Shown piece after piece: positions 11,976 to 50,996 of a stretch of 64,000 nt of DNA (its first letter is position 1; the number at the start of each line of letters is the position of its first letter). Where the stretch lies: contig CAWAIJ010000010.1 of assembly GCA_963782075.1 (NCBI GenBank), positions 62,526 through 126,525 of the forward strand, given 5' to 3'. The notes beneath the pieces are model-generated. The model made no database searches, was not told the DNA's origin, and was given only the letters and a program-made list of their open reading frames with translations. The DNA is from an uncultured Actinomycetota bacterium. Its GTDB lineage: Bacteria > Actinomycetota > Actinomycetes > Propionibacteriales > Nocardioidaceae. Made by a program: the position numbers and the translations under genes.

Positions 11976-11976
11976 G

Positions 11977-12945: not shown

Positions 12946-12983
12946 GGGCCTGATGGTAGGTCGGCGGTTGTGGAGATCCGGGT

Positions 12984-21456: not shown

Positions 21457-21647
21457 CCGCTCACCCTAAGTGCACCATCGCGCCCGGACGCACCTGGACT
21501 GTGCAGTCATTCCACTGCCATTGCCCTCCGCAGGAGAAGACACTGGCCAGTCACTCGACCAGGCGTCGGTCGCGGTTGAGGTAGGCGCTTCACAGGGTTG
21601 GGGACGAGGGGTTGCGGGTGTCGGCGGCGTGCCGTATGATCGAACGT

Positions 21648-23021
21648 ATGTTCGAACAAGCATCCCAGCGAATCCGGGAGGGCGCCTCGGTGGCGCCCCC
21701 GGAAGACGTGGATGCCCAGACGGTGGCGGGGTGGGCGGCAGCCCTCGCCTGTAGCGAGCTCGCGCTGGACGACCCCGCACGGATCGACCTGATCCGGGCG
21801 TTGGAGGAGCTGAAGTGCGCGGCCGAGGGCGCGCAGGCCCAGGTGGCGGCCGAGTTCGAGAACTCCCAGCGCGCGGTAGCTGAGCAACGCGGGGTTCCGG
21901 CCGAACGACGGGGTCGGGGGATCGCCGAACAGATCGCGCTGGCTCGTCGCGAGTCGCCCCACCGGGGCCGCCGCCACCTGCGACTGGCCCGGGTGCTCCA
22001 CGAGGAGATGACCTGCACCGCCGCGGCGCTGCGGGCAGGCAGGATCACCGAGTACAAGGCGTCCCTGCTCGCGCACGAGACCTCGTGCCTGTCCCGCGAG
22101 GACCGCATCATCGTGGATGCCACGATCTCCGGCGACCCCGCCCGGGTGGAGGAGATGGGCGACCGCCAGGCCGCGGCGCAGGCCCGCAAGCTGGCTGCCG
22201 AGCTCGACGTGGAGGCGGTGGCTGAACGGCGCCGGCGGGCCGAGTCCGAGCGCCACGTCTCCGTCCGTCCCGCCCCGGACACCATGACCTGGCTGGGAGC
22301 GTTGCTGCCGGTCAAGGACGGCATCGCCGTGTTCGCCGCGCTCAAGGCAGCGGCTGACACCGCCCGGGCGAGCGGCGACCCACGAAGCCGCGGCCAGGTC
22401 ATGGCCGACACGTTGTGCCAACGCGTCACCGGCGCTGCCGGGGATGCCACGGCTCCCACCGGCGGACGCGGTACGTCGACGCCGGTGTCGCTGGGTGTGG
22501 TCATGACCGACGGCGCCCTGTTCGCAGGCGCCGACGACCCCGCCCACCTCGAGGGCTACGGCCCGATCCCCGCCGACCTGGCCCGGGAGCTCGTGGCTCA
22601 CGCCATCAGCGCCGGCGACCGGGTCTGGCTGCGCCGGCTCTACACCCACCCCGGCACCGGTGAGCTGGTCGCCATGGACTCCCGGCAGCGGCTCTTCCGT
22701 GACGGCCTCGCCGCGCTGATCCGGCTGCGCGACCAGACCTGCCGCACCCCCTGGTGCGATGCCCCGATCCGCCGCGGCGACCACGCCGTCGAGCACCAGT
22801 CGCGCGGGCCGACCAGCCTCGAGAACGGCCAAGGCCTCTGCGAGGCCTGTGACCTGGCCAAGCAAGCGCCCGGCTGGCGGGCCTCACCCGTGGCCGACAC
22901 CGTCGGCCACCAGATCGACACGACCACCCCCACCGGACACCGCTATCGATCGCGAGCGCCGGCGCTCACGCGCCCGCCCTACCGACTCACCCAGCCCGGC
23001 GTGTGGACCTTGGTCGCCTGA
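21648..23021 (+). CDS. DUF222 plus HNH endonuclease domain protein (REP13E12-like)
   Basis: N-terminal DUF222-like helical region (LIRALEELKCAAEGAQAQVAAEF). C-terminal HNH region: CRTPWCDAPIRRGDHAVEHQSRGPTSLENGQGLCEACDLAKQ. The start is taken as MFEQAS (ATG at 21648). Confidence 0.85.
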   Translation: MFEQASQRIREGASVAPPEDVDAQTVAGWAAALACSELALDDPARIDLIRALEELKCAAEGAQAQVAAEFENSQRAVAEQRGVPAERRGRGIAEQIALARRESPHRGRRHLRLARVLHEEMTCTAAALRAGRITEYKASLLAHETSCLSREDRIIVDATISGDPARVEEMGDRQAAAQARKLAAELDVEAVAERRRRAESERHVSVRPAPDTMTWLGALLPVKDGIAVFAALKAAADTARASGDPRSRGQVMADTLCQRVTGAAGDATAPTGGRGTSTPVSLGVVMTDGALFAGADDPAHLEGYGPIPADLARELVAHAISAGDRVWLRRLYTHPGTGELVAMDSRQRLFRDGLAALIRLRDQTCRTPWCDAPIRRGDHAVEHQSRGPTSLENGQGLCEACDLAKQAPGWRASPVADTVGHQIDTTTPTGHRYRSRAPALTRPPYRLTQPGVWTLVA

Positions 23022-26260: not shown

Positions 26261-26824
26261 TCAGTCCTCGCCGCGCAGCATCGGCCGCACCAGCTTGCGG
26301 CCGTGGTGGATCTGCGCCTTCACCGTCCCCAGCGGCGCGTCGACCAGCCGCGCGATCTCGTCGTACGGCAGCCCGTAGACGTCGCGCAGCAGCAGTGGCT
26401 CGACGAACTGGGGGTGGTCGCGCTCGAGCGTCTCCATCGCTTCCAGCAGGTCGAGCCGGGTGCCGGCGATGACGCTGGTGGTGCGGGGGTCGGGCCGGTC
26501 GACGAGGGCGTCGCTGACTCCGCCGACCACGGCCTGGTTCTTCAGCCGACGATAGGTCGACCGGGCGGAGTTGACCGCGACCGAGTGCATCCAGGTCGTG
26601 AAGCGACCGTTGCCGTGCCACGAGCCGATCTTGTTCGCGATGTTGATGAGGGCTTCCTGGCAGGCGTCCTCGGCGTCGTTGGAGAACGGGAGCACCCCAC
26701 GACACACGTTGAGGGCGCGCGGCCGGACGGCGGTCAGCAGCGTCTCCAGGGCGTCGCGTTCCCCGGCCTGCGCCCGTCGGGCCAGGTCGTCGATCTCGTC
26801 CGGTGTCGTGCTGTCCCACGCCAT
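26261..26824 (-). CDS. ECF-type RNA polymerase sigma-70 factor
   Basis: Region 2: DAEDACQEALINIANKI...FTTWMHSVAVNSARSTYRR. Region 4: LLRDVYGLPYDEIARLVDAPLGTVKAQIHHGRKLV. Length 187 aa. Confidence 0.88.
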   Translation of the reverse strand: MAWDSTTPDEIDDLARRAQAGERDALETLLTAVRPRALNVCRGVLPFSNDAEDACQEALINIANKIGSWHGNGRFTTWMHSVAVNSARSTYRRLKNQAVVGGVSDALVDRPDPRTTSVIAGTRLDLLEAMETLERDHPQFVEPLLLRDVYGLPYDEIARLVDAPLGTVKAQIHHGRKLVRPMLRGED

Positions 26825-26880
26825 GTGGCGATCCCTCCCCCGTAGTGCGCTGTCGACATGAACATAATGCAGGGGTGTCC

Positions 26881-28359
26881 ATGCCCTCTCGGATCGGTCG
26901 CTACGCCGTGCGCCGGCGCATCGGTTCCGGCGGTTTCGCCACCGTCTGGCTCGCCTACGACGAGCAGCTGGATTCGCCTGTCGCGGTGAAGGTGCTGGCC
27001 GAGAACTGGACCGAGGACCACCACGTCCGGCAGCGGTTCCTCGAGGAGGGGCGCTTCCTGCGCAAGGTCGAGTCGCCCCACGTCGTCTCCGTCTACGACG
27101 CCGGTGAGCTCGACGACGGGCGGCCCTACCTGGTGATGTCGTACGCCGACCAGGGCACCCTCGCCGACCGGCTGGAGATCGACGGGCTGACTCCCACCCA
27201 GGCGCTGGAGGTGGTGCGCCAGATCGGGCTCGGGCTGACCGCCCTCCACGAGCGCGGCGTGCTCCACCGCGACGTCAAGCCGGCCAACGTGCTGTTCCGC
27301 ACGATCGAGTCGCGCGACGGGGAGCCGCAGGTGCGGGCGATGCTGGCCGACCTCGGTCTCGGCAAGGCCTTCGACGTCTCGTCGCGGCTGACCATGATCG
27401 CCGGCACCCCCTCCTTCGTCGCACCCGAGCAGGCGCAGGGGGAGCGGCTCGACCCGCGCGCCGACCTCTACGCGCTGGGCGCGCTGACCCACCTGCTGCT
27501 GACCGGCCAGGCGCCGTTCCGGCACGCCTCGCTCTCCGCGGCCGCCCAGCCCGGCCCGCCACCGGAGCTCGCGGCCGAGGGCCGGACGTTCGGCGCGGAC
27601 GTCGTGGCCGCGGTCCGGCAGGCCCTCGAACCGGACCGCGACGACCGCTGGCCCGACGTGGCGACGTACGTCGGCGCGCTCACCACCGCCCTGGGCGCGT
27701 CGGTCGACGGCGACCGCGGCCCACTCCCCGAACCGTGGCTGCCGCTCGACCCGAACCTGACCCAGCCCGGACCGCGACCCAGCTCGTTCGGTCCCGAGGG
27801 GGATCTTCCCGATCCGGTGCCCCCGCGGCGCTCCCGGACCCGGAGCCGGATCCTGCTCGGTGGCGCCGCTGTGCTCGCGCTGCTCGTCGGTGCGGGAGGC
27901 GGATACGCAGCGCAGCGCACGCAGCAGGAGCCGGTGACGCTCCGCGACTCCACCGGCTCCCTGGTCGCGACCGTTCCGCACTCCTGGACCGCCGCGGTGG
28001 CGAGGGGACAGTGGACCCCTCCGGAGCAGGAGGAGGAGCTGCCCGCGCTGTCGGCCGGGACCTCCGAGGACTGGGTCAGCGCCGCGGAGGGTGAGGGAGT
28101 GTTCATCGGGGTGATCGCGTCCGACGACATGCCCGAGCAGCTCCCCGGTCACGACGGGTGCGAGAGCGTGCTCGTCCCGGTGAGCGACGTCGACGGCGGC
28201 GACCCGGTGCTGACCCAGGTGTCGACCGGGTGCCCGGGCGTGATCGTGGAGCGGGTGCGACAGGTCTCGGTGGGCCGCTACCTGTGGGTGCAGGTCCGCA
28301 GCCTGGACCGGGTGACCGCCTACGGCGTCCTGGACGACGTCGCCGCGCCGGGATTCTGA
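26881..28359 (+). CDS. Hanks-type Ser/Thr protein kinase with a TM segment and an extracytoplasmic domain
   Basis: IGSGGFATVWLA, VAVK, HRDVKPANVLF, DLGLGK, TPSFVAPEQ. TM segment: ILLGGAAVLALLVGAGGGYAA. The roughly 150-aa C-terminal domain contains two Cys. The start is the ATG at 26881, inside track ORF 26803..28359. Confidence 0.9.
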   Translation: MPSRIGRYAVRRRIGSGGFATVWLAYDEQLDSPVAVKVLAENWTEDHHVRQRFLEEGRFLRKVESPHVVSVYDAGELDDGRPYLVMSYADQGTLADRLEIDGLTPTQALEVVRQIGLGLTALHERGVLHRDVKPANVLFRTIESRDGEPQVRAMLADLGLGKAFDVSSRLTMIAGTPSFVAPEQAQGERLDPRADLYALGALTHLLLTGQAPFRHASLSAAAQPGPPPELAAEGRTFGADVVAAVRQALEPDRDDRWPDVATYVGALTTALGASVDGDRGPLPEPWLPLDPNLTQPGPRPSSFGPEGDLPDPVPPRRSRTRSRILLGGAAVLALLVGAGGGYAAQRTQQEPVTLRDSTGSLVATVPHSWTAAVARGQWTPPEQEEELPALSAGTSEDWVSAAEGEGVFIGVIASDDMPEQLPGHDGCESVLVPVSDVDGGDPVLTQVSTGCPGVIVERVRQVSVGRYLWVQVRSLDRVTAYGVLDDVAAPGF

Positions 28360-33361: not shown

Positions 33362-33400
33362 TGGGTTTGACTGACGCCCGAGCGGGGTAGCCTCCGCGAC

Positions 33401-33694
33401 GTGGATGAGCAGCTGATCGCACCGCCCGTGATCTACCTCCCCGTCGAGACCGACGCCGACGGCCAGGTGGCCGACATCAAGATGATCAAGTTGGGCGACG
33501 GCCGGGTGGCCCTGCTGGGCTACACCGCCCTCGACCGGTTCATCGACGCCTGGGGCGAGCACCAGCCGTGGCTGCTCCTCGAGAGCAACCGCCTCGCCGA
33601 GGTCCACGAGGCGAAGCCCTACGACCTGAAGCTGCTCGACGTCGCCGTGCCCGAGGAGTTCCGGCCCGGTCCGCCGCGGGAGGTGCCGGCGTGA
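33401..33694 (+). CDS. Small SseB-like / SAV_915-like protein, the first gene of the toxin module
   Basis: 97 aa. ...VIYLPVETDADGQ...GDGRVALLGYTALDRFIDAWGEHQPWLLLESNRLAEV resembles the SseB N-terminal fold pattern (x-L-x-x-F/Y-T-x-x-x-x-L). GTG start. Its stop overlaps the next gene's start (GTGA). Confidence 0.5.
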   Translation: MDEQLIAPPVIYLPVETDADGQVADIKMIKLGDGRVALLGYTALDRFIDAWGEHQPWLLLESNRLAEVHEAKPYDLKLLDVAVPEEFRPGPPREVPA

Positions 33695-33978
33695 CGCTGC
33701 GACTCGACGCGGGAGCCGCGGCCCGGATCGCCGGCGGCCACGACGACGCGGCCTCGACGATCGACGGCTCGGCCGGTAGCGCGCCCGGAACCGTCGACGC
33801 CGGCTACGGCTCGGCGTACGTCACCGACATCCTGGCCGCCGTCACCGAGACTGCCGGCGAGATCGCCGCGATCAACGTCGGGATCGCCGCGCTGGTGCGC
33901 GACGTCGCCGACTCACTCGGGCGCACCGAGGACGAGATCGCGCGCGAGTTCGACTCGATGGCGAGGGTCGGCGAATGA
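33691..33978 (+). CDS. Small helical protein resembling EspC/DUF2580 'type VII secretion target' proteins
   Basis: 95 aa. VTLRLDAGAAARIAGGHDDAASTIDG...AGEIAAINVGIAALVRDVADSLGRTEDEIAREFDS has the size, helical Ala-rich character and 'L-x-(V/L)-D-x-x-A-(L/A)-x-x-x-A' opening typical of that family. It is coupled to both neighbours. Confidence 0.45.
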   Translation: MTLRLDAGAAARIAGGHDDAASTIDGSAGSAPGTVDAGYGSAYVTDILAAVTETAGEIAAINVGIAALVRDVADSLGRTEDEIAREFDSMARVGE

Positions 33979-35117
33979 CGGAGATGGACACGCGGGTCGA
34001 GGGCGACCCCGGAGCGGTGACCAAGGCCGCGACCTGGTTGCGCGACACCCTCTCCACCAACCTCGCGACCGCCGGTGACGACCAGCAGGACGCCCGCAAC
34101 GACGCCCGGGGCAGCTGGGAGGGCGAGACCGCCTCGTCGTACCAGAACGTCGCCGGCGACACCCTCAAGGCCACCGACAAGCACGAGGAACGGGTCAAGC
34201 GGGCCGCGACCGCGCTCGACCAGTACGCCGCGCGCCTGCAGCGCTGCATCAACGAGATGACCGCGATCAGGGGCCGAGCCACCACCGGCGGCCTGACCGT
34301 CGCCGGCACCGTCATCCACTCACCGCCGGACGCGCCGTCGACCTCGTTCGAGGTCGGCTCTCCCGAGGAGACGGCGTACAACGACGCGGTCGCCAAGGTC
34401 GAGCTGTGGAACACCCTGGTCAACGACACGTCGAAGACCTACCAGGACTTCGTCGACTGGGTGGACTCCCAGCTGCCCCCGGACGTCGCCGACGCGCGTG
34501 AGAAGGACGGGTCCGACACCCTTCTCGGCGTGCTCGAGGACGCGTTCCCGAACTTCGCCGGCGGCATCGGCGCCGGCCTCATCGGGTTCGGGCTGCTGGG
34601 CAAGGCGGACGACTACACGGCGGCCGCGCGCGAGTTCCGCCGCAGGAGCCGGGTCTCGGGCGACCCGCGGGTCCGCGGCTCGGCCGACACCCCGTCGGGG
34701 AGGGTCAAGCTCGACGACCTCCTCGGCAAGGCCGACTGGCTCGGCAAGGGAGGCCGGTTCCTCGGCGGCCCCGGAGGCATCCTGATCGACGTCGGCTTCG
34801 GCATCCACGAGGGCATGGAGACCGGTGACTGGACCCGGGTCGCCCTCACCACCGGCACCAGCATCGCGGTGGGGGCGGGGGCGGCCGCTCTCGTGGCCGC
34901 GGGCGTGATCTCGGCACCGGCCATCGTGGTGATCGGCGGGACCGCGGTGGCCGCGATGGCCCTCTCGGCCGGCGTCGGCTACGTCTACGACAACTGGGAC
35001 GACATCACCGACTGGACCGGCGACCGGGTCGACGACGTGACCGACTTCGCCTCCGACACCTGGGACAGCGCGACCGACGTCGCCGGTGACGCCTGGGACG
35101 CCGTGACCCCGTGGTGA
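33975..35117 (+). CDS. Candidate T7SS-exported polymorphic toxin: WXG-type helical N-domain, glycine-zipper membrane domain and acidic Asp/Trp repeat tail
   Basis: Residues 1-100: GDPGAVTKAATWLRD...ARGSWEGETASSYQNV...ALDQYAARLQRCINEMTAIR, with W48-E-G50, as in WXG100/LXG-like T7SS signal domains. Glycine-rich hydrophobic segments: FAGGIGAGLIGFGLLG, GGPGGILIDVGFG and GTSIAVGAGAAALVAAGVISAPAIVVIGGTAVAAMALSAGVGYVY. Tail: DNWDDITDWTGDRVDDVTDFASDTWDSATDVAGDAWDAVTPW. Confidence 0.6.
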   Translation: MTEMDTRVEGDPGAVTKAATWLRDTLSTNLATAGDDQQDARNDARGSWEGETASSYQNVAGDTLKATDKHEERVKRAATALDQYAARLQRCINEMTAIRGRATTGGLTVAGTVIHSPPDAPSTSFEVGSPEETAYNDAVAKVELWNTLVNDTSKTYQDFVDWVDSQLPPDVADAREKDGSDTLLGVLEDAFPNFAGGIGAGLIGFGLLGKADDYTAAAREFRRRSRVSGDPRVRGSADTPSGRVKLDDLLGKADWLGKGGRFLGGPGGILIDVGFGIHEGMETGDWTRVALTTGTSIAVGAGAAALVAAGVISAPAIVVIGGTAVAAMALSAGVGYVYDNWDDITDWTGDRVDDVTDFASDTWDSATDVAGDAWDAVTPW

Positions 35118-35785
35118 GCGATGACGCAGCGCGCCGGCTGATCCCGCGCTGGTTCACCGTCGCCGTCCTGGCGGCGCTGACGGTCCTCACGGCCACGGCG
35201 TTCGGGTTGTCCTTCGCCTTCGACGGTGTGCTCGGGTGGTCCTTCCGAGTCATGTTCGTCTTCGCGGCTCTGCTCCTGGTCTCTGCCGTGTCGGCGCTCG
35301 CGCGCCCCCGACGTCCCCAGGAGCCGGTCGTCGCCGCCGACGGCACCCGGACCTTCCTCGCCCCCGCAGCCACGGTGTGGCCGCTGGTCGGAGCGATGGT
35401 GGCCATGATGGCGGTGGCCGTGATGTGGGCCTACGTCGCGGTCACCGACTTCGGCTCGCTGGAGTCACCCGGCTTCGCCCTGGTGACCATCGGTGCGGCG
35501 GTGGTCGCGATCCCCGACTTCCTGCGGCTGGTCACGGGTCGGCTGCACCGCTGGCGTCTCGAGCTCGGGCCCGAGTCCCTCCGCTACCGCGGCTACCGCA
35601 CCGACCTCACCTGGCCGTGGTCGAAGGTCCACGGCGCCCGGATCCAGGCGCGTGGTCCGGCGGGGGTGCTCATCGACGTCAAGGGCGCCGGCGAGGACCC
35701 GGTCGTGCCGATCACCGCGTTCGCCGTACCCGCCGAGCAGCTGATCGAGGAGATCGAGCGCGCCAAGGCCACGGCCCGCCGCTGA
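35111..35785 (+). CDS. Polytopic membrane protein with a C-terminal bacterial PH-like domain, candidate cognate immunity protein
   Basis: Four hydrophobic segments (FTVAVLAALTVLTATAFGL; VMFVFAALLLVSAVSAL; VWPLVGAMVAMMAVAVMWAYV; FALVTIGAAVVAIPDF). These are followed by LHRWRLELGPESLRYRGYRTDLTWPWSKVHGARIQ...VLIDVKG...PITAF. The GTG start overlaps the toxin stop by 7 nt. Confidence 0.55.
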   Translation: MVSDDAARRLIPRWFTVAVLAALTVLTATAFGLSFAFDGVLGWSFRVMFVFAALLLVSAVSALARPRRPQEPVVAADGTRTFLAPAATVWPLVGAMVAMMAVAVMWAYVAVTDFGSLESPGFALVTIGAAVVAIPDFLRLVTGRLHRWRLELGPESLRYRGYRTDLTWPWSKVHGARIQARGPAGVLIDVKGAGEDPVVPITAFAVPAEQLIEEIERAKATARR

Positions 35786-35815
35786 GTCGGTCGACCGCGG
35801 AAAACCGCACCAGCC

Positions 35816-36961
35816 TCACGCCAGCGCGAGCGTCAACGCCAGCACCGTCTCGGGGTCCTCGAGTGTGTCGCCGTAGAGCTCGCGGAGCTGGTTCATGCGG
35901 TAGCGGACGGTCTGCGGGTGGACGAACAGGTCGCCCGCGACGTCCTCACGACGGCCCTGGTGGAGCAGCCACGACCGCAACGTCGCCTCCAGCTTCTCGG
36001 CCGTCGCGGGCCTCAGGTCGGCGAGTGGCGCGAGTGCGCGCGCCCGCAGGTCGGCCAGTGCCTCGGGGTCGGCGGTGACCACCAGGGAGGTGAGGTGCCG
36101 CTCCGTGTCGAGCGGTGCCGCCGAGTGCCGGAGGTCGAGGCCGCGGACCGCCCGGGCGTACGACGTACGTGCCTCTCGCCAGGGCCGCGCCGGTCCGACC
36201 ACGGCGTGCCGGTCGGCGAGGATCCGCAGCAGCCGGGTCCGTGACTGGCCGCCCATGTCGGGCACCAGCACGACGGCGAGGCCCTCGGGCAGTCCGTGGT
36301 CGCTCGGGGTCAACGCGGCCGGCGCCACCAGCCCGAGCACCGGCCGGACCTGGGCCTCGGGCAGCACCACGGCGGTGAGGGTCCTGGGTGCCGTCCAGTC
36401 CGCGCGCTCGGCGGCCTCCGTCACGTCGTTCGCGGGCTCGCCGCGCAGCAGCGCCACCGCGAGCCGGTCGAGGTAGCGCTCCTGGAGCCGGCCGGAGGTC
36501 TCCAGCTCGTCGGTGTGACCGGCGACCGAGGCCGCCGAGAGCTCGTCGATGTAGGCGAACACCAGCTCCGCGAAGGATGCCACCGTGACGGCCGGGACCC
36601 CCGCCTCGACCGCGGTCGCCGAGAGCTCCCGCCACGCGACGCGAGCACCGACCCGGTAGGCAGCCAGCAGTGCGTCGGCCGAGCGCCCGGACCTGGCCTC
36701 GCCGCGGCCGAGCGCGTAGGCGCCCTCGACGGTCGGGGAGAGTGGCTTGCCGGGGTCACCGGTGCGACCGGCTACACGCAGGAAGCCGGCCAGCGCCATC
36801 TGCACCGCCTGCTCGATGGTGGCGGCCATTTGCTCGCCGAGTCCCGCGTTGTAGGCGGGGACCTCCTCGCGGACCGCGGTCACGGTGTGCTCGGCGACCT
36901 CGGGCAGGGTCGCCCGGAGCAGGTCGACGAGCGAGCCCTCGAGCGTGAGCCGTTCCGACAT
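35816..36961 (-). CDS. PucR/CdaR-family transcriptional regulator
   Basis: C-terminal HTH LFVHPQTVRYRMNQLRELYGDTLEDPE. Divergent from the reductase/desaturase pair. Confidence 0.85.
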   Translation of the reverse strand: MSERLTLEGSLVDLLRATLPEVAEHTVTAVREEVPAYNAGLGEQMAATIEQAVQMALAGFLRVAGRTGDPGKPLSPTVEGAYALGRGEARSGRSADALLAAYRVGARVAWRELSATAVEAGVPAVTVASFAELVFAYIDELSAASVAGHTDELETSGRLQERYLDRLAVALLRGEPANDVTEAAERADWTAPRTLTAVVLPEAQVRPVLGLVAPAALTPSDHGLPEGLAVVLVPDMGGQSRTRLLRILADRHAVVGPARPWREARTSYARAVRGLDLRHSAAPLDTERHLTSLVVTADPEALADLRARALAPLADLRPATAEKLEATLRSWLLHQGRREDVAGDLFVHPQTVRYRMNQLRELYGDTLEDPETVLALTLALA

Positions 36962-37035
36962 TTGTCATCTCCGAACAATAAGTGGCGACGGATTCACGCC
37001 TCTACGTCATGTATTGAGCGTACCGCGCAGTCAGG

Positions 37036-38139
37036 ATGGATGTCATGGAGTCCTCCCTGCGAACCCGAGCGCGTCAGCTGGCCGAAGCGGTCACGACGCC
37101 GTTGGTGCCCGCAGACTTCCTCGACCTGTTCGCGCCGCTGCGCGCGGGCGCGGAGCTGCGCGGCCGGATCGAGGAGGTGCGCCCCGAGACCAAGGACGCC
37201 GCCACCTTGGTGATCCGTCCCGGCGCCGACTGGGCGGGGCACGTCCCCGGTCAGTACGTCCGGATCGGTGTCGACGTCGACGGGGTCCGCCAGTGGCGCG
37301 CCTACTCCCTCACCCACGGCCCCCGCGCCGACCGGCGGATCGCGGTGACGGTCAAGGCCGTCCCCGACGGGCTGGTCAGCCACCACCTCGTGCATGACCT
37401 GAAGCCGGGCACCCTGGTCCACCTCGAGCAGGCGGCCGGCGACTTCGTGCTGCCGCCGACCGGTGGCCGGTTCCTCTTCGTCACCGCCGGCAGTGGCATC
37501 ACCCCGGTGATCGGGATGCTGCGCAACCTGTTCCCGTCGACCGACGAGGGCGTGCTGCGGCCCGACCGCAGTGCGGCGTACGACGTCGTCGTCGTCCACG
37601 TCGCGCCCAGCCGGCCCGACTCGATCTTCCTGCGTGACCTCGAGGCCCTCGACGCAGCCGGCGCCATCACCCTGGTCGCACGCTACGACGACGTCCACGG
37701 CGTCCTCGACATCGACGAGCTCCCCGCGCTGGTGCCCGACCTCGCCGAGCGGCTCACCTTCGCCTGCGGCCCGGCCGGGCTGCTCGAGGCGCTCGAGCAG
37801 TTCCACGCCGACAAGGGCCTGGAGCTGTTCACCGAGCAGTTCCGCACCACCCGGGTCGAGCCCGGCGACGGCGGCACCGTCACCTTCGGCAACGGCCAGA
37901 CGATCACGGCCGACGGCGCCACCCCGATCCTCGAGGTCGCCGAGAACGGCGGCGTCCTGATGCCGAGCGGCTGCCGGATGGGCATCTGCTTCAGCTGCGT
38001 GCTGCCGATGACCGAGGGCAGCGTGCGCGACCTGCGCAACGGACAGATCACCACTGCAGTGCCCGGTGAGAGCGGCGCCATCAAGATCCAGACCTGCATC
38101 AGCGCCGCCGCCGGCGCCTGCCACCTCGACCACTCCTGA
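37036..38139 (+). CDS. Ferredoxin-NAD(P)H reductase-type oxidoreductase (FAD/NAD-binding plus C-terminal 2Fe-2S), desaturase electron donor
   Basis: RAYSLT (RxYS FAD motif), FVTAGSGITPVIGML (NAD-binding) and the C-terminal CRMGICFSCV...C plant-type ferredoxin cysteines. Confidence 0.88.
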   Translation: MDVMESSLRTRARQLAEAVTTPLVPADFLDLFAPLRAGAELRGRIEEVRPETKDAATLVIRPGADWAGHVPGQYVRIGVDVDGVRQWRAYSLTHGPRADRRIAVTVKAVPDGLVSHHLVHDLKPGTLVHLEQAAGDFVLPPTGGRFLFVTAGSGITPVIGMLRNLFPSTDEGVLRPDRSAAYDVVVVHVAPSRPDSIFLRDLEALDAAGAITLVARYDDVHGVLDIDELPALVPDLAERLTFACGPAGLLEALEQFHADKGLELFTEQFRTTRVEPGDGGTVTFGNGQTITADGATPILEVAENGGVLMPSGCRMGICFSCVLPMTEGSVRDLRNGQITTAVPGESGAIKIQTCISAAAGACHLDHS

Positions 38140-38163
38140 CGCGACTCCCCCGAAAGGACTGAC

Positions 38164-39399
38164 ATGACTGTCATCCAGAAGAAGGCCGACAACCCGATCG
38201 CTCACCTCACCCCCGAGGACATCGAGCAGCTCGGCCGCGAGCTCGACGCGATCCGCCAGGACATCATCGACTCCCGCGGCGCCTCCGACGCGGCGTACAT
38301 CCGTCGGATGATCAAGACCCAGCGCAGCATCGAGCTCGGCAGTCGAGCCGTGCTCCTGTTCAGCATCTTCCCGCCGGCCTGGTTGATCGGCACCGCCGGC
38401 CTCTCGGTCTCCAAGATCCTCGACAACATGGAGATCGGCCACAACATCCTCCACGGCCAGTGGGACTGGATGCGCGACCCGAAGATCCACTCCACGACCT
38501 GGGACTGGGACATGGCCTCGCCGGCCGAGCAGTGGAAGCACAGCCACAACGAGGTCCACCACAACTTCACCAACGTCGTCGGCAAGGACAACGACCTCGG
38601 CTACGGCATCATGCGCGTCGACGAGGACCAGCCCTGGGCGCCGTTCCACCTCGGCCAGCCGGTCTGGTGCTTCATCAACGCCATGTTCTTCGAGTACGGC
38701 ATCGCCGCCTACGACCTCGACCTCGGCGCCGTGATCAAGAAGAAGCAGACCAAGGACCCCGACTTCCAGCGCCGCGCGAAGCAGGTCCTGGCCAAGATCC
38801 GCAAGCAGGTCACCAAGGACTACGTCGCCCACCCGCTGCTCTCGCTGCCGACCGGCTCGTTCCTGCCGACGCTCGCCGCCAACTTCACCGCGAACATCGT
38901 GCGCAACCTGTGGAGCAACTCGATCATCCTCTGCGGTCACTTCCCCGAGGGTGTCGAGACCTTCGAGAAGCGCTCGATCGAGGGCGAGACCAAGGGCGAC
39001 TGGTACATCCGGCAGATGCTCGGTGCGGCCAACATCTCCGGCTCCCAGGCGATGCACGTGATGTCGGGCAACCTGAGTCACCAGATCGAGCACCACCTCT
39101 TCCCGGACCTGCCGTCCAACCGCTACGCCGAGATCGCACCGAAGGTGCAGGCCCTGTTCGAGAAGTACGAGCTCACCTACCTCACCCGGCCGCTCGCGCC
39201 CCAGGTCTACTCGGCCTGGCACAAGGTGGTCCGGCTCTCGCTGCCCAACGGCTGGCTCGCCACGACCACCAAGCGCAACCTGCCGCGCCAGCTCAAGGCC
39301 CTCTACAAGATGACCACTGGCAGCAAGCGCGAGCGCCGCGCGATCCAGGTGGCACTGACCCGCGAGGCGCGCCAGCAGGACCAGCAGCTCGTCGCCTGA
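38164..39399 (+). CDS. desA3: Membrane fatty-acyl (stearoyl-CoA Delta9, DesA3-like) desaturase
   Basis: Three histidine boxes: HNILHGQWDW, HSHNEVHHNFTN and HQIEHHLFP. The partnership with an upstream FNR-type reductase matches the mycobacterial DesA3/Rv3230c arrangement. Confidence 0.8.
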   Translation: MTVIQKKADNPIAHLTPEDIEQLGRELDAIRQDIIDSRGASDAAYIRRMIKTQRSIELGSRAVLLFSIFPPAWLIGTAGLSVSKILDNMEIGHNILHGQWDWMRDPKIHSTTWDWDMASPAEQWKHSHNEVHHNFTNVVGKDNDLGYGIMRVDEDQPWAPFHLGQPVWCFINAMFFEYGIAAYDLDLGAVIKKKQTKDPDFQRRAKQVLAKIRKQVTKDYVAHPLLSLPTGSFLPTLAANFTANIVRNLWSNSIILCGHFPEGVETFEKRSIEGETKGDWYIRQMLGAANISGSQAMHVMSGNLSHQIEHHLFPDLPSNRYAEIAPKVQALFEKYELTYLTRPLAPQVYSAWHKVVRLSLPNGWLATTTKRNLPRQLKALYKMTTGSKRERRAIQVALTREARQQDQQLVA

Positions 39400-39402
39400 C
39401 GA

Positions 39403-46659: not shown

Positions 46660-47376
46660 ATGTCCACCACCACGCCCACCCAGTTCCTGCTCCCCGGGCA
46701 GGCGGCCGCCCCGGCCGGACCGATCGACATGAACCACATGTACGTGATGCATCACGGCTTCCGTCGTGACCTGATGCGGTTCGTCGAGGCCGCGCAGGGC
46801 ACCCCGGTCAGCGCTCGCGACACCTGGCGGGCGCTGGCCCGCCGTTGGGAGCTGTTCGCGCTGCTCCTGCACCACCACCACTCCGGGGAGGACGCCACGC
46901 TGTGGCCTGCCCTGGAGGCGCGGGCCGACGAGGCCGGTCTGGCCACGCTGGCCGCGATGGAGGCCGAGCACGGCGAGATCGACCCGCTGCTGGCAGCGTG
47001 TTCGCAAGGCTTCACCCGTCTGGCTGAGGTGGCCGATGACGACGCCCGTCGAGCCCTCTCCGTGCGCCTGGTCGCCACGCGGGAACGGCTCGGAGCGCAC
47101 CTGCGGCACGAGGAGACCGAGGCCATCGAGCTGATCCAGGCGGTGTTGACTCCGCAGGAGTGGCACGAGATCGACGAGGTGTTCCGCAAGGAGATGACCT
47201 TCGCCCTGGTGCTCCAGATGGTCCCGTGGGCGCTGTCGGGACTGACCGACGACGTCCGGCACGAGCTCTTCACCCAGCCCGGCGGTGCGGGGTACCGGGT
47301 CGTGGCGGCGTTGACCTGCCGCAGGTTCGAGCGCCAGGAGCGCCGTACGTTCCGCTACATCCCGGCGTCGGACTAG
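46660..47376 (+). CDS. Hemerythrin (HHE cation-binding) domain protein
   Basis: MHHGFRRDL...LLLHHHHSGEDATLWPAL...MEAEHGEID...HLRHEETEA show the hemerythrin-like His/Glu ligand pattern. A GGAGGA RBS lies upstream. Confidence 0.8.
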   Translation: MSTTTPTQFLLPGQAAAPAGPIDMNHMYVMHHGFRRDLMRFVEAAQGTPVSARDTWRALARRWELFALLLHHHHSGEDATLWPALEARADEAGLATLAAMEAEHGEIDPLLAACSQGFTRLAEVADDDARRALSVRLVATRERLGAHLRHEETEAIELIQAVLTPQEWHEIDEVFRKEMTFALVLQMVPWALSGLTDDVRHELFTQPGGAGYRVVAALTCRRFERQERRTFRYIPASD

Positions 47377-50300
47377 AAGCCGAAGCGCTCCCGGACCCCG
47401 TCGAACCAGGCGGCACAGCGGGGGATGCCCCACTGCTCCATCAGGGCCACCGCGCCGTCGGCATGGCGGGAGGCCGCCTCCCGCTCACCGGCGGCGCACG
47501 CGGCCATGGCCAGGAACGCGTCCACCGGACCTTCGGCCACGCTGGAACCGGACGCGACGACGGTGCCGACATACGGCGCCAGCTGGGCGTAGGTGCTCTC
47601 GCCGAGATCGGGGTCATCGACCCACAGTGCGGTCTCGGCGGCGGCGGCGATCAACAGCATCGAGAACCAGTCCATCGCCCCCGGCAGGTCGATGGGGTGG
47701 GCGGTCACGAAGTCCCGGGCCCGCTCAGGATCGCCGTCGCGGATCATCATCTGGCACAACAGCGAGGTGACCGGGAGCGACGTGGTCTCGTGCGTCGACA
47801 GCAGCGCCGGCAACAAGGCCCCCACGTCGCCGCTCCACATCTCCATCGACAGTGCCGCACCCAGCAATGCCTCCTTGAGCTGGAACAGCACCACCCGTTG
47901 GCTGGTGTGCTGCATCCGGGCCATGGCCTCTCGGGCGTCGTTCTCACGACCGGCCATCGCCAGCCACGGCACCACGAGACCGTCGAGCACGATCAGTCCG
48001 TAGGGGATCCGGAGCCGCTCGGCCTCCGAGCGCGCACCCGCCTCGACCTGCCACATCTCCTCGACCCGACCGAGCTCGGACAGGGCCACCGCCCGCAAGG
48101 TCGCCGCCACCACGAACCGGGGCCCGTCGCCCAGACGTTGGGACAGCTCCGACGCCTCCGCCGCCAGCGCCAGCCGCTCTGCAGCCGTGTCCGGCCGCCA
48201 CAGCGAGATGAACCCGGTCAGGCAGGCGTCGACGAGCAGCGCGTCGTCAACGAGACGGCGGGCCATCGCCAGCGACTCCTCGACCAGGGCCGCGCGTTCC
48301 TCGTGTCCAGCGAGGAAGTAGAGCTCTGACGCCAGGGCCGTCATCACCCGGCAACGCTGGGAGGAGTCGCCGGTCGGCAGCTCGGTCAGAACCCGCCTGA
48401 GCGCCGCGATCTGTCGATGGTGGACCTCGCCGTAGCCGGAGGTCTGCCAGAAGGCGCCGATGGTCATGATCGTCGCGGCCTTCGCGAGCGCCTCGGGGTC
48501 ACCGACGGTCTCGGCCACATCGAGGGCGAGCTCGGCTGCCTCGCGGAGGCGCGGCCACTGCCCCGACCAGCGCTCCGCATCAGCGAGCTCGATCAGCACG
48601 CCCAGCCGGTCGTGGTCGTCAAGGGTGGGGTCCTCAGCCATCACCTCGAGCGCCTGGCGCAGCAGCAGCGCCGCCTCCTCGTGCGCGTGGAGGAGCCTCG
48701 CCACCGCAGCGGCGCGTACCGCGGCGCGCCACGCGTGGCCGGCGTGCTCGACCCCGGCCGCGAGCCAGTGCCGCGCCACCTCGGTCTCCCGACCGGGTCG
48801 ACCCTCGAGGGCCGCCGCGACCCGGGCATGGGCGCGGGCCGCGCGGGTCGGGCCGAGCGCTTCGTACGCCGCATCCCGGACCAGCGCATGACCGAAGGAC
48901 CAGCGGCCCACGCCGTCCTCGCGGACCAGGCCGACACTCACGGCCCGCTCGACTCCGTCGATCAGGTCGTCCTCGCTGTCGCCGGTGGCGGCGACGAGGC
49001 TGTCGAGGTCGAAGGAGCGGCCCACGACGCTCGCGGCGCGCAGCGTGGCCGCGTCGGCATCGGACAGTCTGCCGATCCGCCGCGAGACCACGTCGCGCAC
49101 CGCGACGGGCGCTGCCGTCTCGGTCAGGAGCACGGCGAGGTCGCCTTCCTGGGCGAGCCGGGCGAACTCCACGAGGTAGAACGGGTTGCCGTCTGTACGC
49201 CGCGCCAGCTCTTCGGCGTCCTCAGAGCTCGGTTCCGTGCTGCTGATGGCGGCCACGACGTCCCCGGCGGCGGCACCGTCGAGGCCGGTGAGCTCGACCC
49301 GGACCGCGTGGGCCCGCGACATCGCCTCGGCGACGTCGGCCAGCGCGCCGGTGGGCTCGGGGTGCGGGCGCCAGGTCGCCAGCACCAGCAACCGACCCGT
49401 GGTGAGGGTCTCCACCAGCAGTCGCAGCACTTGCAGGCTCGCGCGGTCGGCCCAGTGGAGGTCGTCGAGGACCACCACGATCGTCTCGTTGCGGGCCGCA
49501 TCGCGTACCCGCTGCACGATCGTGTCCCAGGTCCGGAAGCCGGCGCCGTGGTCGACCGAGTGCTCGACCTCCAGTTCGCGGTCGAGGCCCCGCAGCACCT
49601 GCTGCCACGGCCACAGCGGTGGCGCACCGTCGTCCTGGGAGCACCGGCCGACCAGCAACCGGGCTCCAGCGTCGACGGCTCGCGCCCCCAGCTCGGCGGC
49701 CAGGCGGGACTTGCCGATCCCCGGCTCGCCCGTGAGCGTCGCGTAGGTCGGTGCCCCGGCGACCGCACCCTCGAGCGCGTTGCCGAGCCGGGCCAGCTCG
49801 CCGACCCTGCCCACCATCGGCCAGGCGGGGAGTGACGGGCGGTGCGATGCCGATCCGCTCGCCGATGTCGTCGCGGACGGGGGCCCGGTCGGTGACGAGT
49901 CGTTGCCCGCTTCCCAGCGGAGCGCAGGGTCCTGGCGCAGGATCCGCACCTGGAGGTCGCGCAGCTCCTCCGACGGCTCCAGCCCGAGCTCGTCGTCGAG
50001 CAGGTCGGCCAGCTCGCGCAGCACGTCCAGGGCGTCGGCCTGCCGGCCACCGTGGACGAGGGCCAGCGCCCGCAGCGCCCAGAGCCGCTCGCGCATCGGG
50101 TAGGTGCCGGTGAGCGCCTCGAGCTCGGCGGCGACCGGCGCGTGCGCTCCCTGGGCGAGTCGGACAGTGGCGCGATCCTCCAGCGCGACCGTGCGCAGCT
50201 CGTCGAGCCGCGCCCGCTCGGCCCGGACCACGTCGGCGTCACCGAGGTCGGCGTACGCCTCGCCCCGCCAGAGGGCCAGGGCTTCGTCGAGCTCGGTGAC

Positions 50301-50711
50301 GATCGCGGCCAGCTCCTCGGCGCGCAGCGCCGGTCGGGTCAGCAGCCCGGACCGGCCGAGCCGCCGGTTGGTGTCGGAGACGGCCCGCTGGAACCGCGTC
50401 GCGTCGAGGGCGTCATCGTCGATCCGCAGGGCGTAGCCGGCGCCGACCGTGACCAACATCCGAGCCGGGGCGCGCGGAGCACGATCCGGCTCGAGGGTGC
50501 GTCGCAGCGCTGCGATGTAGGCGTGCAGTGTGCCGGGCAGCGCCTCGGGTGGCTCGTCGCCCCACATCATGTCGACGAGGGCGTCGTAGGTGACCGGGCG
50601 ACCGCTTGCCATCGCCAGGGTGGCGACGATCTGGCGCAGCTTCATGGAGGTGAGCTCCAGCGGCTGGCGGTCGCGCTCCACCGTGGTCTCGCCCAGGACG
50701 CTCACGCGCAT
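47373..50711 (-). CDS. SARP/AfsR-family regulator: OmpR-type winged helix, BTAD, NB-ARC-like P-loop ATPase and TPR-like C-terminal half
   Basis: MRVSVLGETTVERDRQPLEL...LVTVGAGYALRI (trans_reg_C), a BTAD region (ATRFQRAV...LWRGEAYADL...LRLA) and Walker A GEPGIGKSRLAAE. Walker B is VVVLDDLHWAD. A long helical repeat region follows. The start was moved to 50711, inside track ORF 47373..50978. Confidence 0.88.
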   Translation of the reverse strand: MRVSVLGETTVERDRQPLELTSMKLRQIVATLAMASGRPVTYDALVDMMWGDEPPEALPGTLHAYIAALRRTLEPDRAPRAPARMLVTVGAGYALRIDDDALDATRFQRAVSDTNRRLGRSGLLTRPALRAEELAAIVTELDEALALWRGEAYADLGDADVVRAERARLDELRTVALEDRATVRLAQGAHAPVAAELEALTGTYPMRERLWALRALALVHGGRQADALDVLRELADLLDDELGLEPSEELRDLQVRILRQDPALRWEAGNDSSPTGPPSATTSASGSASHRPSLPAWPMVGRVGELARLGNALEGAVAGAPTYATLTGEPGIGKSRLAAELGARAVDAGARLLVGRCSQDDGAPPLWPWQQVLRGLDRELEVEHSVDHGAGFRTWDTIVQRVRDAARNETIVVVLDDLHWADRASLQVLRLLVETLTTGRLLVLATWRPHPEPTGALADVAEAMSRAHAVRVELTGLDGAAAGDVVAAISSTEPSSEDAEELARRTDGNPFYLVEFARLAQEGDLAVLLTETAAPVAVRDVVSRRIGRLSDADAATLRAASVVGRSFDLDSLVAATGDSEDDLIDGVERAVSVGLVREDGVGRWSFGHALVRDAAYEALGPTRAARAHARVAAALEGRPGRETEVARHWLAAGVEHAGHAWRAAVRAAAVARLLHAHEEAALLLRQALEVMAEDPTLDDHDRLGVLIELADAERWSGQWPRLREAAELALDVAETVGDPEALAKAATIMTIGAFWQTSGYGEVHHRQIAALRRVLTELPTGDSSQRCRVMTALASELYFLAGHEERAALVEESLAMARRLVDDALLVDACLTGFISLWRPDTAAERLALAAEASELSQRLGDGPRFVVAATLRAVALSELGRVEEMWQVEAGARSEAERLRIPYGLIVLDGLVVPWLAMAGRENDAREAMARMQHTSQRVVLFQLKEALLGAALSMEMWSGDVGALLPALLSTHETTSLPVTSLLCQMMIRDGDPERARDFVTAHPIDLPGAMDWFSMLLIAAAAETALWVDDPDLGESTYAQLAPYVGTVVASGSSVAEGPVDAFLAMAACAAGEREAASRHADGAVALMEQWGIPRCAAWFDGVRERFGF

Positions 50712-50840
50712 GGTCGGAGCATAGGGACTGAGCCCTCCAAGCGGCATCCAAGCCGCTCGCAAGTCCACTGCAAGTAGACCGCGGTTCAGTAGGACACACG
50801 ACGGACCGCCGTCGTGAGTGAAACCCGAAGAGGAACAGCC

Positions 50841-50996
50841 ATGACCACCATCACGACCCGCACGAGAGCCGCACGACGGCGTACGAGGGCAGTCAGCCGC
50901 GCCACGCTCGCGGCGCGCTCCGACCGCCCGATGACCTACTACCCGACACGCACCCAGACCTCCGTGGAGGCGCTTCACCTGCTGCGCAACCGGTGA
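50841..50996 (+). CDS. Hypothetical 51-aa Arg/Thr-rich small protein
   Basis: MTTITTRTRAARRRTRAVSRATLAARSDRPMTYYPTRTQTSVEALHLLRNR. The ATG is preceded by GAAGAGGAA at a 5-nt spacing. About 43 of 50 codons end in G/C, consistent with coding, but I recognised no homology. Confidence 0.3.
   Translation: MTTITTRTRAARRRTRAVSRATLAARSDRPMTYYPTRTQTSVEALHLLRNR

Follow-up and report, generated by a model that had tools for sequence, protein, structure and literature searches.

A conserved four-gene operon of Actinomycetota as a candidate type VII secretion effector module with a colicin-like membrane domain

Introduction

In a 64,000-nucleotide stretch of DNA from an uncultured actinomycetotal bacterium of the family Nocardioidaceae (assembly GCA_963782075.1, contig CAWAIJ010000010.1, positions 62,526 to 126,525; hereafter the window), we found that four genes, g1 to g4, form a conserved operon, and we analyzed computationally what this operon may encode. 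The analysis resolved the structure of the genes and their conservation in other genomes, a WXG100/PPE-like N-terminal domain and a remote colicin similarity in the g3 protein, the membership of the g1 protein in the SAV_915 family, and, for the g4 protein, an architecture of four transmembrane segments plus a PH-like domain with a fast-evolving membrane half. We judge the chances slightly better than even that the cassette is an autonomous operon for an effector module of the T7SSa/ESX-4 type, in which g3 would be a membrane toxin and g4 its immunity protein, placed remote from the genes for secretion (T7SS, type VII secretion system). Much work has been done on the antibacterial type VII effectors of Bacillota, whereas the first one from Actinomycetota was shown experimentally only in 2026 (PMC13444075).

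Results

The four genes form a conserved operon

All four genes lie on the same strand and are chained by overlapping stop and start codons (Table 1). A first-pass annotation of the window, made from the letters alone, had described such an overlap-chained four-gene module; its coordinates proved exact, and on two Logan contigs whose g3 is identical, a gene caller had independently arrived at the same four genes. For g4, an in-frame GTG at 35114 offers an alternative start, which would replace the 7-nt overlap with g3 by a 4-nt GTGA overlap. The GC content at third codon positions is 0.92-0.97 in g1 to g4, at a window GC of 71%, matching the coding signature of this genome.

Using a genome scan and protein look-ups, together with tblastn and tracing of open reading frames (ORFs), we recovered 25 independent loci from Nocardioides species and metagenome-assembled genomes (MAGs), Aeromicrobium and Marmoricola, in which the order g1-g2-g3-g4 is kept, nearly always with stop/start overlaps of 4 or 7 nt. 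The same order was found in five more distant loci, belonging to a distant Nocardioides clade, Cellulomonas and Herbihabitans, which brings the cassette to a total of ~30 loci in at least four actinobacterial orders. Because gene order and overlaps recur across loci, and do so far beyond chance, the operon is real and conserved.

A promoter-like element is also shared between loci. Directly 5' of g1, the motif GGTAGNNN, followed after 6-7 nt by GTG or ATG, is present in 20 of the 30 cassette loci, non-syntenic ones included (the window and loci L003, L005, L006, L007, L009-L011, L013-L021, L023, L024 and L027), against a background expectation for this motif and spacing upstream of g1 of 0.026 per region. 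Often, GTTTG/C occurs ~17 nt further upstream. In the window, the -10-like GGTAGCCT ends 7 nt 5' of the g1 start codon. A generic sigma-70 promoter and terminator scan detected nothing, and the promoter call comes from cross-locus conservation only. As GGTAGNNN is kept whatever the flanking context, it suggests that the cassette carries its own promoter, which would travel with it, and a leaderless transcript is predicted.

Table 1. Coordinates of the cassette and of its features in the window
Feature	Position	Strand	Description
Promoter-like element	33365-33393	+	-35-like GTTTGA at 33365-33370; -10-like GGTAGCCT at 33386-33393
g1	33401-33694	+	GTG start, 97 aa; acidic and soluble; belongs to the SAV_915 family and is SseB-like; putative chaperone specific to the toxin
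g2	33691-33978	+	GTG start, 95 aa; GTGA overlap with g1 at 33691-33694; acidic and helical, with a weak likeness to EspC/WXG100; putative targeting partner for the N-domain of g3
g3	33975-35117	+	ATG start, 380 aa; ATGA overlap with g2 at 33975-33978
g3 N-domain, residues 1-175	33975-34499	+	Helices 12-47, 51-104 and 130-175, then GGLTVxGTVI strand motif
g3 W48-E49-G50 turn motif	34116-34124	+	In the model, at the turn that joins the two long helices
g3 C-domain, residues 176-345	34500-35009	+	Amphipathic helices, E-T-G-D-W motif at 34818-34832, Gly/Ala-rich hydrophobic hairpin
g3 tail, residues 346-380 and stop	35010-35117	+	Acidic, Trp-containing 11-residue repeats
g4	35111-35785	+	GTG start, 224 aa; 7-nt overlap with g3
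g4 residues 1-140	35111-35530	+	Four transmembrane segments (hydropathy); fastest-evolving part of the locus
g4 residues 141-224 and stop	35531-35785	+	Conserved bacterial-PH-like domain, motif TGRLHRW...YRGYR

The N-terminal domain of g3 is of the WXG100/PPE type

The g3 protein had been described in the first-pass annotation as having a WXG-type helical N terminus, and for the family as a whole the evidence for this is strong. Upon searching with three profiles, built from close orthologs (A1), from a broader alignment of 82 sequences (A2) and from a distant clade (A6), we found Staphylococcus aureus EsxA matched at E 3e-4 (A6) and 3e-3 (A2), with ~12 other WXG100 structures at the top of the list. 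Among the 82 family members, the Pfam families WXG100 (22 members, best E 1.8e-6), WXG100_2 (14) and T7SS_signal (13) were the sole recurrent N-terminal matches, and several homologs carry a precomputed PF06013 assignment and are named 'YukE' or 'WXG100 family type VII secretion target' in their source. The window protein by itself gave weak matches to WXG100 and YwqH-like families, the WXG100 match being full-length but sub-threshold (15.4 bits at a cut-off of 27.3). LXG was matched by 0 of the 82 members at E <=0.01, and the alternative label of an LXG-type toxin was thus not borne out.

Modeling of g3 by AF2 with the 82-sequence alignment gave a confident N-domain (predicted local distance difference test, pLDDT, >90 for residues 1-175), in which two long helices meet at the WEG turn, another long helix is present, and the conserved motifs 'DTxV' and 'GGLTVxGTVI' make up a small sheet. 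The top Foldseek matches of this model were PPE41, PPE15 and PPE4 (probability 0.92-0.99) and EsxA (probability 0.97, TM-score 0.82), with weak E-values (>=0.4), as is usual for helical bundles. The turn itself is highly conserved: across 33 orthologs, G50 never varies and conservation of W48 and E49 is at least 90%, and a W-x-G occurs at residues 45-49 in most of the distant representatives. Neither the sequence nor the hydropathy profile contains an N-terminal hydrophobic segment that could be a signal peptide (no signal-peptide predictor was used). We are confident that, at the level of the family, the N-domain of g3 is of the WXG100/PPE type.

The C-terminal domain of g3 is probably a remote relative of bacteriocin pore domains

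In its C-terminal domain, g3 carries a hydrophobic stretch (approximately residues 291-338, 34845-34988), a putative helical hairpin, that is preceded by amphipathic helices. Searching the PDB with profile A1, we obtained colicin E1 as the best match (E 0.035), in an alignment that places 'GPGGILIDVGFGIxEGxETGDWTR' of g3 on 'GHVSFGYDVVSDILKIKDTGDWKPLF' of the colicin, just before the hydrophobic hairpin. With profile A2, six pore-forming colicin and pyocin structures were matched, among them pyocin S5 (9.1e-6), colicin A (2.8e-5), colicin S4 (1.1e-4), Ib (0.012) and E1 (0.027), and the match to colicin A covers residues 7-188 of the chain, essentially the whole pore domain. A hidden Markov model (HMM) of the C-domain only scored 31.8, 17.8 and 16.2 bits against three colicin/pyocin targets, whose sequences were transcribed from the printed profile-search alignments, while reversed targets reached at most 2.4 bits and none of 200 local shuffles per target attained the real score. 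Part of this signal is carried independently by the region that precedes the hairpin; the hairpin by itself does not discriminate.

From these sequence comparisons, the C-domain of g3 is probably a remote relative of the pore-forming bacteriocin domains, or at least a close architectural analog. The first-pass annotation had called it a glycine-zipper membrane domain; its membrane-inserting character agrees with our results, and the label of a generic glycine zipper is better replaced by that of a remote relative of the colicin/pyocin pore domain. The domain is moreover a separable module, since in Brachybacterium sp. P6-10-X1 (L035 10001-11970) the same C-domain and acidic tail are found on a canonical EsxA-like WXG100 N-domain. 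This Brachybacterium gene has no g1 or g2 upstream, and it is followed by a gene for a 272-aa acidic soluble protein of no known family.

The tail of g3 consists of the repeats TDWTGDRVDDV, TDFASDTWDSA and TDVAGDAWDAV and a final TPW. The number of repeats varies by insertions and deletions among the homologs in alignment A1, and the terminal W380 is invariant. Weak matches to apolipoprotein and SHERP hint that the tail may be an amphipathic helix lying on a membrane surface.

The g4 protein joins a fast-evolving membrane half to a conserved PH-like domain

For g4, the earlier description as a protein of four transmembrane segments plus a PH-like domain held: four hydrophobic segments are present, and bPH_6 (PF10756) was matched by 8 of 19 orthologs (best E 1.6e-4; Aeromicrobium ortholog 0.0023), with the window protein at E 0.23 and 11.9 bits at a cut-off of 22. 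None of the g4 orthologs matched DUF443, and a g4 profile retrieved from the PDB only chance or non-significant matches. By the positive-inside rule, both termini are predicted to lie inside, which would place the PH-like domain in the cytoplasm. The invariant residues of g4 cluster in the PH-like half.

The two halves of g4 evolve at different rates. Within the syntenic group, identity to the window is mostly 50-58% in the membrane half (75% in L008 and 67% in L014), as compared with 68-90% in the PH-like half, 62-85% in g3 and mostly 79-94% in the flanking genes. In four of five pairwise comparisons, the non-synonymous rate (dN) of the membrane half was 2-5 times that of the flanking genes, at ratios to the synonymous rate (dN/dS) of 0.44-0.54; dN of g3 was likewise 2-5 times that of the flanking genes in most comparisons. 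The two tandem g4 paralogs of N. limicola differ mainly in the membrane half. We predict that the membrane half would be the specificity determinant of an immunity protein.

At larger distances the fourth gene itself changes. In the distant Nocardioides clade, g1 to g3 are still detectable by HMM, and the fourth gene shows no detectable similarity to g4 while keeping the plan of four transmembrane segments plus a soluble domain. In Herbihabitans rhizosphaerae (L034 10041-11696), the fourth gene encodes a 551-aa soluble protein of five ~110-aa repeats with the pattern 'GWRHLD...GYAF.V.TQPD.Y...GPL.V.K.TG.V..FGSNP', for which no Pfam, NCBIfam or PDB match was found; this protein resembles a poly-immunity arrangement. 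Searches of Pfam and NCBIfam with the fourth-position proteins of the distant loci showed no immunity family, and searches of the PDB with them came back empty.

g1 is a SAV_915-type protein and g2 is weakly EspC-like

The g1 protein passes the NCBIfam model NF042914 (SAV_915) at E 8e-16, with 57.6 bits at a cut-off of 40 (79.6 bits for the Aeromicrobium ortholog), while the Pfam SseB family was matched only below its cut-off (13.8 bits, cut-off 21) and weakly in 9 of 19 orthologs. A profile search retrieved 758 homologs, whose source names are 'SAV_915 family' or 'SseB N-terminal domain(-containing)'. The SseB-like label that g1 had been given thus mostly holds. Its description as a small helical partner does not: an alternating beta/alpha pattern, read from the sequence, means that g1 is not a helical hairpin, and we describe it as an alpha/beta protein of the SseB/SAV_915 type. 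No credible match was found in the PDB with the g1 profile, matches to light-harvesting proteins in that search being dismissed as spurious, and family scans of g1 and its orthologs gave no match to DUF4176. According to a published prediction, the SseB domain is a chaperone that binds peptides and is related to Tic22 (PMC9503650); by analogy with this prediction and from the gene context, g1 is predicted to be a dedicated chaperone. In Cellulomonas bogoriensis (L033 8001-8555, 184 aa) and in Herbihabitans (L034 8001-8549, 182 aa), g1 contains the SAV_915/SseB-like domain twice in tandem, with both halves matching the g1 profile. We found no paper on SAV_915 in the literature.

The EspC-like character that had been noted for g2 was recovered at a weak level. 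Pfam T7SS_ESX_EspC (PF10824) was matched weakly by 11 of 21 g2 orthologs (best E 0.0046), the window g2 itself having no family match, and the g2 profile gave full-length but non-significant matches to ESAT-6/EsxA in the PDB (E 0.18-0.7). Near the end of the second predicted helix, a hydrophobic-x-x-x-D/E motif (L76...E80) is conserved, with Y at the first position only in L020, L028 and L029 and L, I or M elsewhere.

The g3 family is large and its architecture is fixed

A search of representative sequences with g3 gave 937 clusters (50% identity) at E <=1e-3, and 471 at E <=1e-10. Most of the best 150 of the 937 representatives match end to end and are 350-425 aa long. Those that match partially still carry the 'G-E-S' loop, the Gly/Ala-rich hairpin and the acidic tail, and hence the architecture of g3 is fixed rather than polymorphic. 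Variable C termini on conserved N termini, which the first-pass annotation had proposed to look for in a comparison of homologs and their neighborhoods, were accordingly not seen; the sole exception is the Brachybacterium protein, where it is the N-domain that differs.

Both flanks of the window locus are common to eight other loci, which implies vertical inheritance within that species group, and deeper clades carry the cassette in unrelated contexts. In two comparisons, of L011 and L023 with window positions 33975-35530, the synonymous divergence (dS) of g3 and the g4 membrane half was 0.68-0.85, exceeding that of g1, g2 and most flanks (0.15-0.46; 0.61 for PucR in L011, and L023 is noisy because of frameshifts). 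This excess hints that the toxin-immunity segment may have been replaced by recombination inside a conserved locus. L008 and L023, two copies in one MAG, were considered as paralogs; they share the same flanks and most likely reflect strain heterogeneity or a binning effect.

Two loci showed unusual arrangements. In the Nocardioides MAG locus L022 (11815-15400), the opposite strand carries a second, divergent cassette that is convergent with the first one. Its genes are g2-like (14658-15050) and g3-like (13633 to ~14640, lacking WxG), and neither g1 nor g4 is present in it. A protein with TY-Chap3 and TY-Chap1 chaperone folds (11815-13188; Pfam 7e-29 and 7e-23) is encoded there after g4 of the first cassette. 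In L032 (5700-11200, compared with window positions 33400-39400), a cassette of the distant type lies beyond the far end of the same PucR, ferredoxin-reductase and fatty-acid-desaturase block that flanks the window cassette, so that two divergent cassette types occupy neighboring but different sites in related genomes. A tblastn search of PLSDB gave no match that would indicate carriage on plasmids. Among the related genomes, soil or environmental MAGs predominate.

The cassette lies away from type VII core genes

The first-pass annotation had noted that no EccC, EccB, EccD or MycP occurs in the 64 kb and had regarded the cassette as a remote substrate locus. We agree on both counts: none of these components was found in the one window ORF of more than 1000 aa or among the 20 largest others, which were the ones scanned (~30 smaller ORFs were outside the scan), and in none of the ~30 loci examined was a T7SS core gene present within 8-10 kb of the cassette. 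A literature search for a T7SS in Nocardioides found no paper, and look-ups of proteins at the window edges, aimed at extending the contig, retrieved no record.

In N. zeae and N. limicola (L003 11978-15093; L005 16246-19492), pairs of S8 peptidase genes follow closely downstream of the cassette. As candidates for MycP they were rejected: the T7SS mycosin is their best NCBIfam model, but scores of 122-156 bits against a cut-off of 279 mark them as generic subtilases. Since these peptidases adjoin the cassette in some loci, protease-activated toxins of the ABP type (PMC12582261) were also considered and rejected, as those are enzymatic and no protease is present in the window locus.

The large ORFs scanned in the window are ordinary metabolic or regulatory ones. 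The single ORF above 1000 aa encodes a 1201-aa BTAD/AAA_16/Trans_reg_C regulator (47376-50978). Elsewhere in the window we noted a DUF222 protein (21612-23018), two Ser/Thr protein kinases (12984-14303 and 26803-28356) and a 408-aa ORF without a Pfam match (55494-56717).

Discussion

We infer secretion through a T7SS, toxicity of g3, chaperoning by g1 and immunity through g4, and we suggest a mechanism that would join these roles. The g3 protein would be made in the cytoplasm, where its WXG100/PPE-like N-domain would pair with g2 and thereby create a composite export signal of WxG plus h-x-x-x-D/E, while g1, as a dedicated chaperone, would keep the hydrophobic C-domain soluble until export. 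Once exported, the C-domain would insert from the outside into the cytoplasmic membrane of a neighboring cell, where the hairpin and the amphipathic helices that precede it would dissipate the membrane potential in the manner of colicins or pyocin S5. In the membrane of the producer, g4 would neutralize the cognate toxin, as colicin immunity proteins and TsaI do.

Several known systems resemble parts of this scheme. TspA of S. aureus is a membrane-depolarizing T7SSb toxin with a colicin Ia-based model and a membrane immunity protein, TsaI, and its locus is remote from ess (PMC7456083). With TspA/TsaI, the cassette shares a helical T7SS-type N-domain joined to a colicin-channel-like C-domain, an adjacent polytopic membrane protein, a location away from the secretion genes and an architecture that is fixed within the family. 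There are also differences: TspA belongs to the T7SSb of Bacillota and has an LXG-like N-domain, whereas the g3 family has no LXG match; TsaI is a DUF443 protein that occurs in arrays, whereas g4 is a four-transmembrane plus bacterial-PH protein that is usually single; and the colicin likeness of TspA came from modeling on colicin Ia, while that of g3 comes from sequence profiles that matched pyocin S5, colicin A and colicin S4. In mycobacteria, the toxin EatA is secreted by ESX-4 and is accompanied by the accessory proteins TapA1 and TapA2 and the inhibitor EatI, and loci that join Tap-like genes to a helical N-domain with varying payloads, and to immunity proteins of matching topology, are described as widespread in Actinomycetota (PMC13444075). 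The Eat/Tap loci, from the same phylum, follow the layout proposed here: small accessory genes come first, then the gene of a toxin whose helical N-domain is elongated, and downstream of it that of a protective protein with a topology suited to the target compartment. These loci, too, occupy discrete sites apart from the secretion genes, in their case those of ESX-4. The payloads and partners differ: that of EatA is a GH183 arabinanase and that of g3 a membrane domain, both Tap proteins are WXG100-like hairpins whereas here only g2 is (weakly) and g1 is SseB/SAV_915-like, and EatI is a lipoprotein. Neither Nocardioides nor any payload of a colicin-like or pore-forming kind is mentioned in the main text of that paper.

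The C-domain of g3 aligns with pore-forming colicins (A, S4, Ib, E1 and B) and pyocin S5 over the whole pore-forming domain, shares with them an (E/D)TG(D/N)W motif right before a hydrophobic helical hairpin (in g3 a putative one) of ~40-45 residues, and is likewise accompanied by a small polytopic membrane protein, g4, as immunity candidate. Immunity proteins of the colicin A type have four transmembrane helices. Unlike colicins, g3 has no receptor-binding or translocation domains, delivery by a T7SS being proposed instead, and it has fewer pre-hairpin helices in the AF2 model; and g4 differs from colicin immunity proteins in being co-directional with its toxin gene, translationally coupled to it, and extended by a PH-like domain. 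Dedicated globular toxin chaperones are known for the T7SS of Bacillota, in the division of labor between LXG toxins, Lap targeting factors and Ltc (DUF4176) (PMC12478183). We propose a similar division here, with g2 as targeting factor, g1 as chaperone, g3 as toxin and g4 as immunity protein, in another phylum and in other families, given that neither LXG in g3 nor DUF4176 in g1 was matched. Judged by these analogies, the class of system is already known, each element has a known analog, and no current view is overturned. That such a module was new to Nocardioides-like actinobacteria, as the first-pass annotation had held, stands in so far as we found no paper on the g3 family, and is weakened by the widespread occurrence of the same locus grammar in Actinomycetota (PMC13444075).

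A number of observations weigh against a T7SS-delivered pore former with its immunity protein. The colicin link comes from profile A2 only, plus the marginal match of A1; profile A6, from the distant clade, found no colicin in the PDB, and hhalign against a thin colicin alignment of three sequences gave a weak result (P 0.0017 over 44 columns). Pfam Colicin (PF01024) was matched by 0 of the 82 members at E <=0.01, and as no member passes its threshold we do not file the C-domain of g3 as a member of that family. Two AF2 runs left the hairpin at pLDDT <50 without a confident compact colicin fold, and Foldseek searches with the g3 models returned no colicin; because the hairpin is modeled at so low a confidence, Foldseek was unable to test for the colicin fold. 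No EccC-like ORF (>600 aa with several P-loops) was present in the window or in 29 loci, 8-10 kb around each, and the motif of g2 is mostly LxxxE, not YxxxD/E. The evolutionary pattern weighs against it as well, with an architecture fixed across ~150 representatives, a locus that is syntenic and vertically inherited within species groups, dN/dS values that are all below 1, and no immunity arrays among the loci except in N. limicola. Finally, g4 is most conserved in its predicted cytoplasmic PH-like domain, and a simple role in immunity would leave this unaccounted for.

Much of this would be at home in what we regard as the main rival, an unlikely if serious one: that the cassette is an EspA/EspC/EspD-like substrate or secretion-accessory module with a physiological role in the envelope of the producer, either as a membrane-inserted or surface structure that helps other substrates through the envelope or as one that modulates development, with g4 as membrane partner, anchor or regulator and not as an immunity protein. 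The espACD and EspE-EspF-EspH modules of ESX-1 likewise combine an orphan locus, far from the ESX cluster in the case of espACD, with a ~100-aa EspC partner, a ~390-aa WXG-type substrate and a dedicated stabilizing chaperone (PMC6107294). g3 is of the size of EspA, two of its 82 relatives match EspA_EspE (PF18879), and the matches of g2 orthologs are to the EspC family itself; the fixed architecture of the whole g3 family, the presence of one copy per genome, syntenic within species groups, the purifying selection throughout and the strongly conserved PH-like domain all fit a physiological module. The Esp modules differ, however, in gene order and in having no equivalent of g4, and they serve ESX-1, a virulence-associated system found in mycobacteria only. 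Their chaperones, EspD for EspA/EspC and EspH for EspE/EspF, are YbaB-like, and the SseB-like g1 is therefore not their homolog. The best-supported relatives of the C-domain are bacteriocin pore domains, and the fourth gene turns over completely between clades with its plan kept; N. limicola has it in duplicate, and in Herbihabitans an unrelated soluble protein built of repeats takes its place. To our knowledge, Nocardioides has no mycomembrane and the ESX-1-associated functions of EspA and EspC are known only from pathogenic mycobacteria, both of which we count against an Esp-like role, and we know of no description of EspA with a colicin-like hairpin domain.

Two further explanations appear less probable still. 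The cassette could be independent of any T7SS, with g3 inserting into the membrane of the producer itself, in a stress, holin-like or scaffold function together with g4, and with its WXG100 likeness being that of a generic helical hairpin. That no T7SS genes lie near any locus, that Foldseek also listed BAR and ESCRT-III-like (CdvB2) proteins at its weak E-values, that the window g3 alone stays below every WXG100 threshold, and that the acidic repeat tail with its apolipoprotein and SHERP matches suggests binding to a membrane surface would all agree with this. We nevertheless find it improbable, as sequence profiles, to which the shape of a fold makes no difference, retrieve the WXG100 structures first, the WXG100 clan of Pfam supplies the only recurrent N-terminal matches, a near-invariant WxG sits exactly in the turn, an EspC-like g2 is translationally coupled, and the Brachybacterium relative has a canonical EsxA-type N-domain. 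Very improbable, in our estimate, is that g3 is a secreted membrane toxin aimed at eukaryotes such as protists, fungi or nematodes, with g4 protecting the producer only during export. Host-directed T7SS effectors such as CpnT/TNT do exist (mentioned in PMC13444075), a fixed architecture with low polymorphism would suit a target that is not kin, and these are bacteria of soil and similar environments; yet by sequence the C-domain is closest to pore formers that act on bacteria, and a dedicated, rapidly diverging and strictly co-inherited membrane protein is a hallmark of self-protection against an antibacterial toxin.

Returning to the reading that we favor, of a secreted membrane toxin with its immunity protein, we extend it to the family tentatively, and consider the extended version doubtful as a whole: a large actinobacterial family of T7SS-delivered, colicin-related pore formers, in which SAV_915/SseB chaperones would be a new class that replaces the second WXG100 partner, and in which immunity would be provided by a new family of four-transmembrane plus bacterial-PH proteins with specificity in the membrane half. 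If this is true, colicin-type pore domains have been recruited to type VII secretion in monoderm Actinomycetota. As described in PMC13444075, 47% of the candidate T7SS toxins of Actinomycetota have no predicted function; the family would give a predicted mechanism, membrane depolarization by a colicin-related domain, for a very common cassette of actinobacteria in soil, and would add a candidate class of chaperones (SseB/SAV_915) and a new immunity architecture. For Nocardioides and related genera, it would potentially provide a narrow-spectrum pore former paired with its immunity protein.

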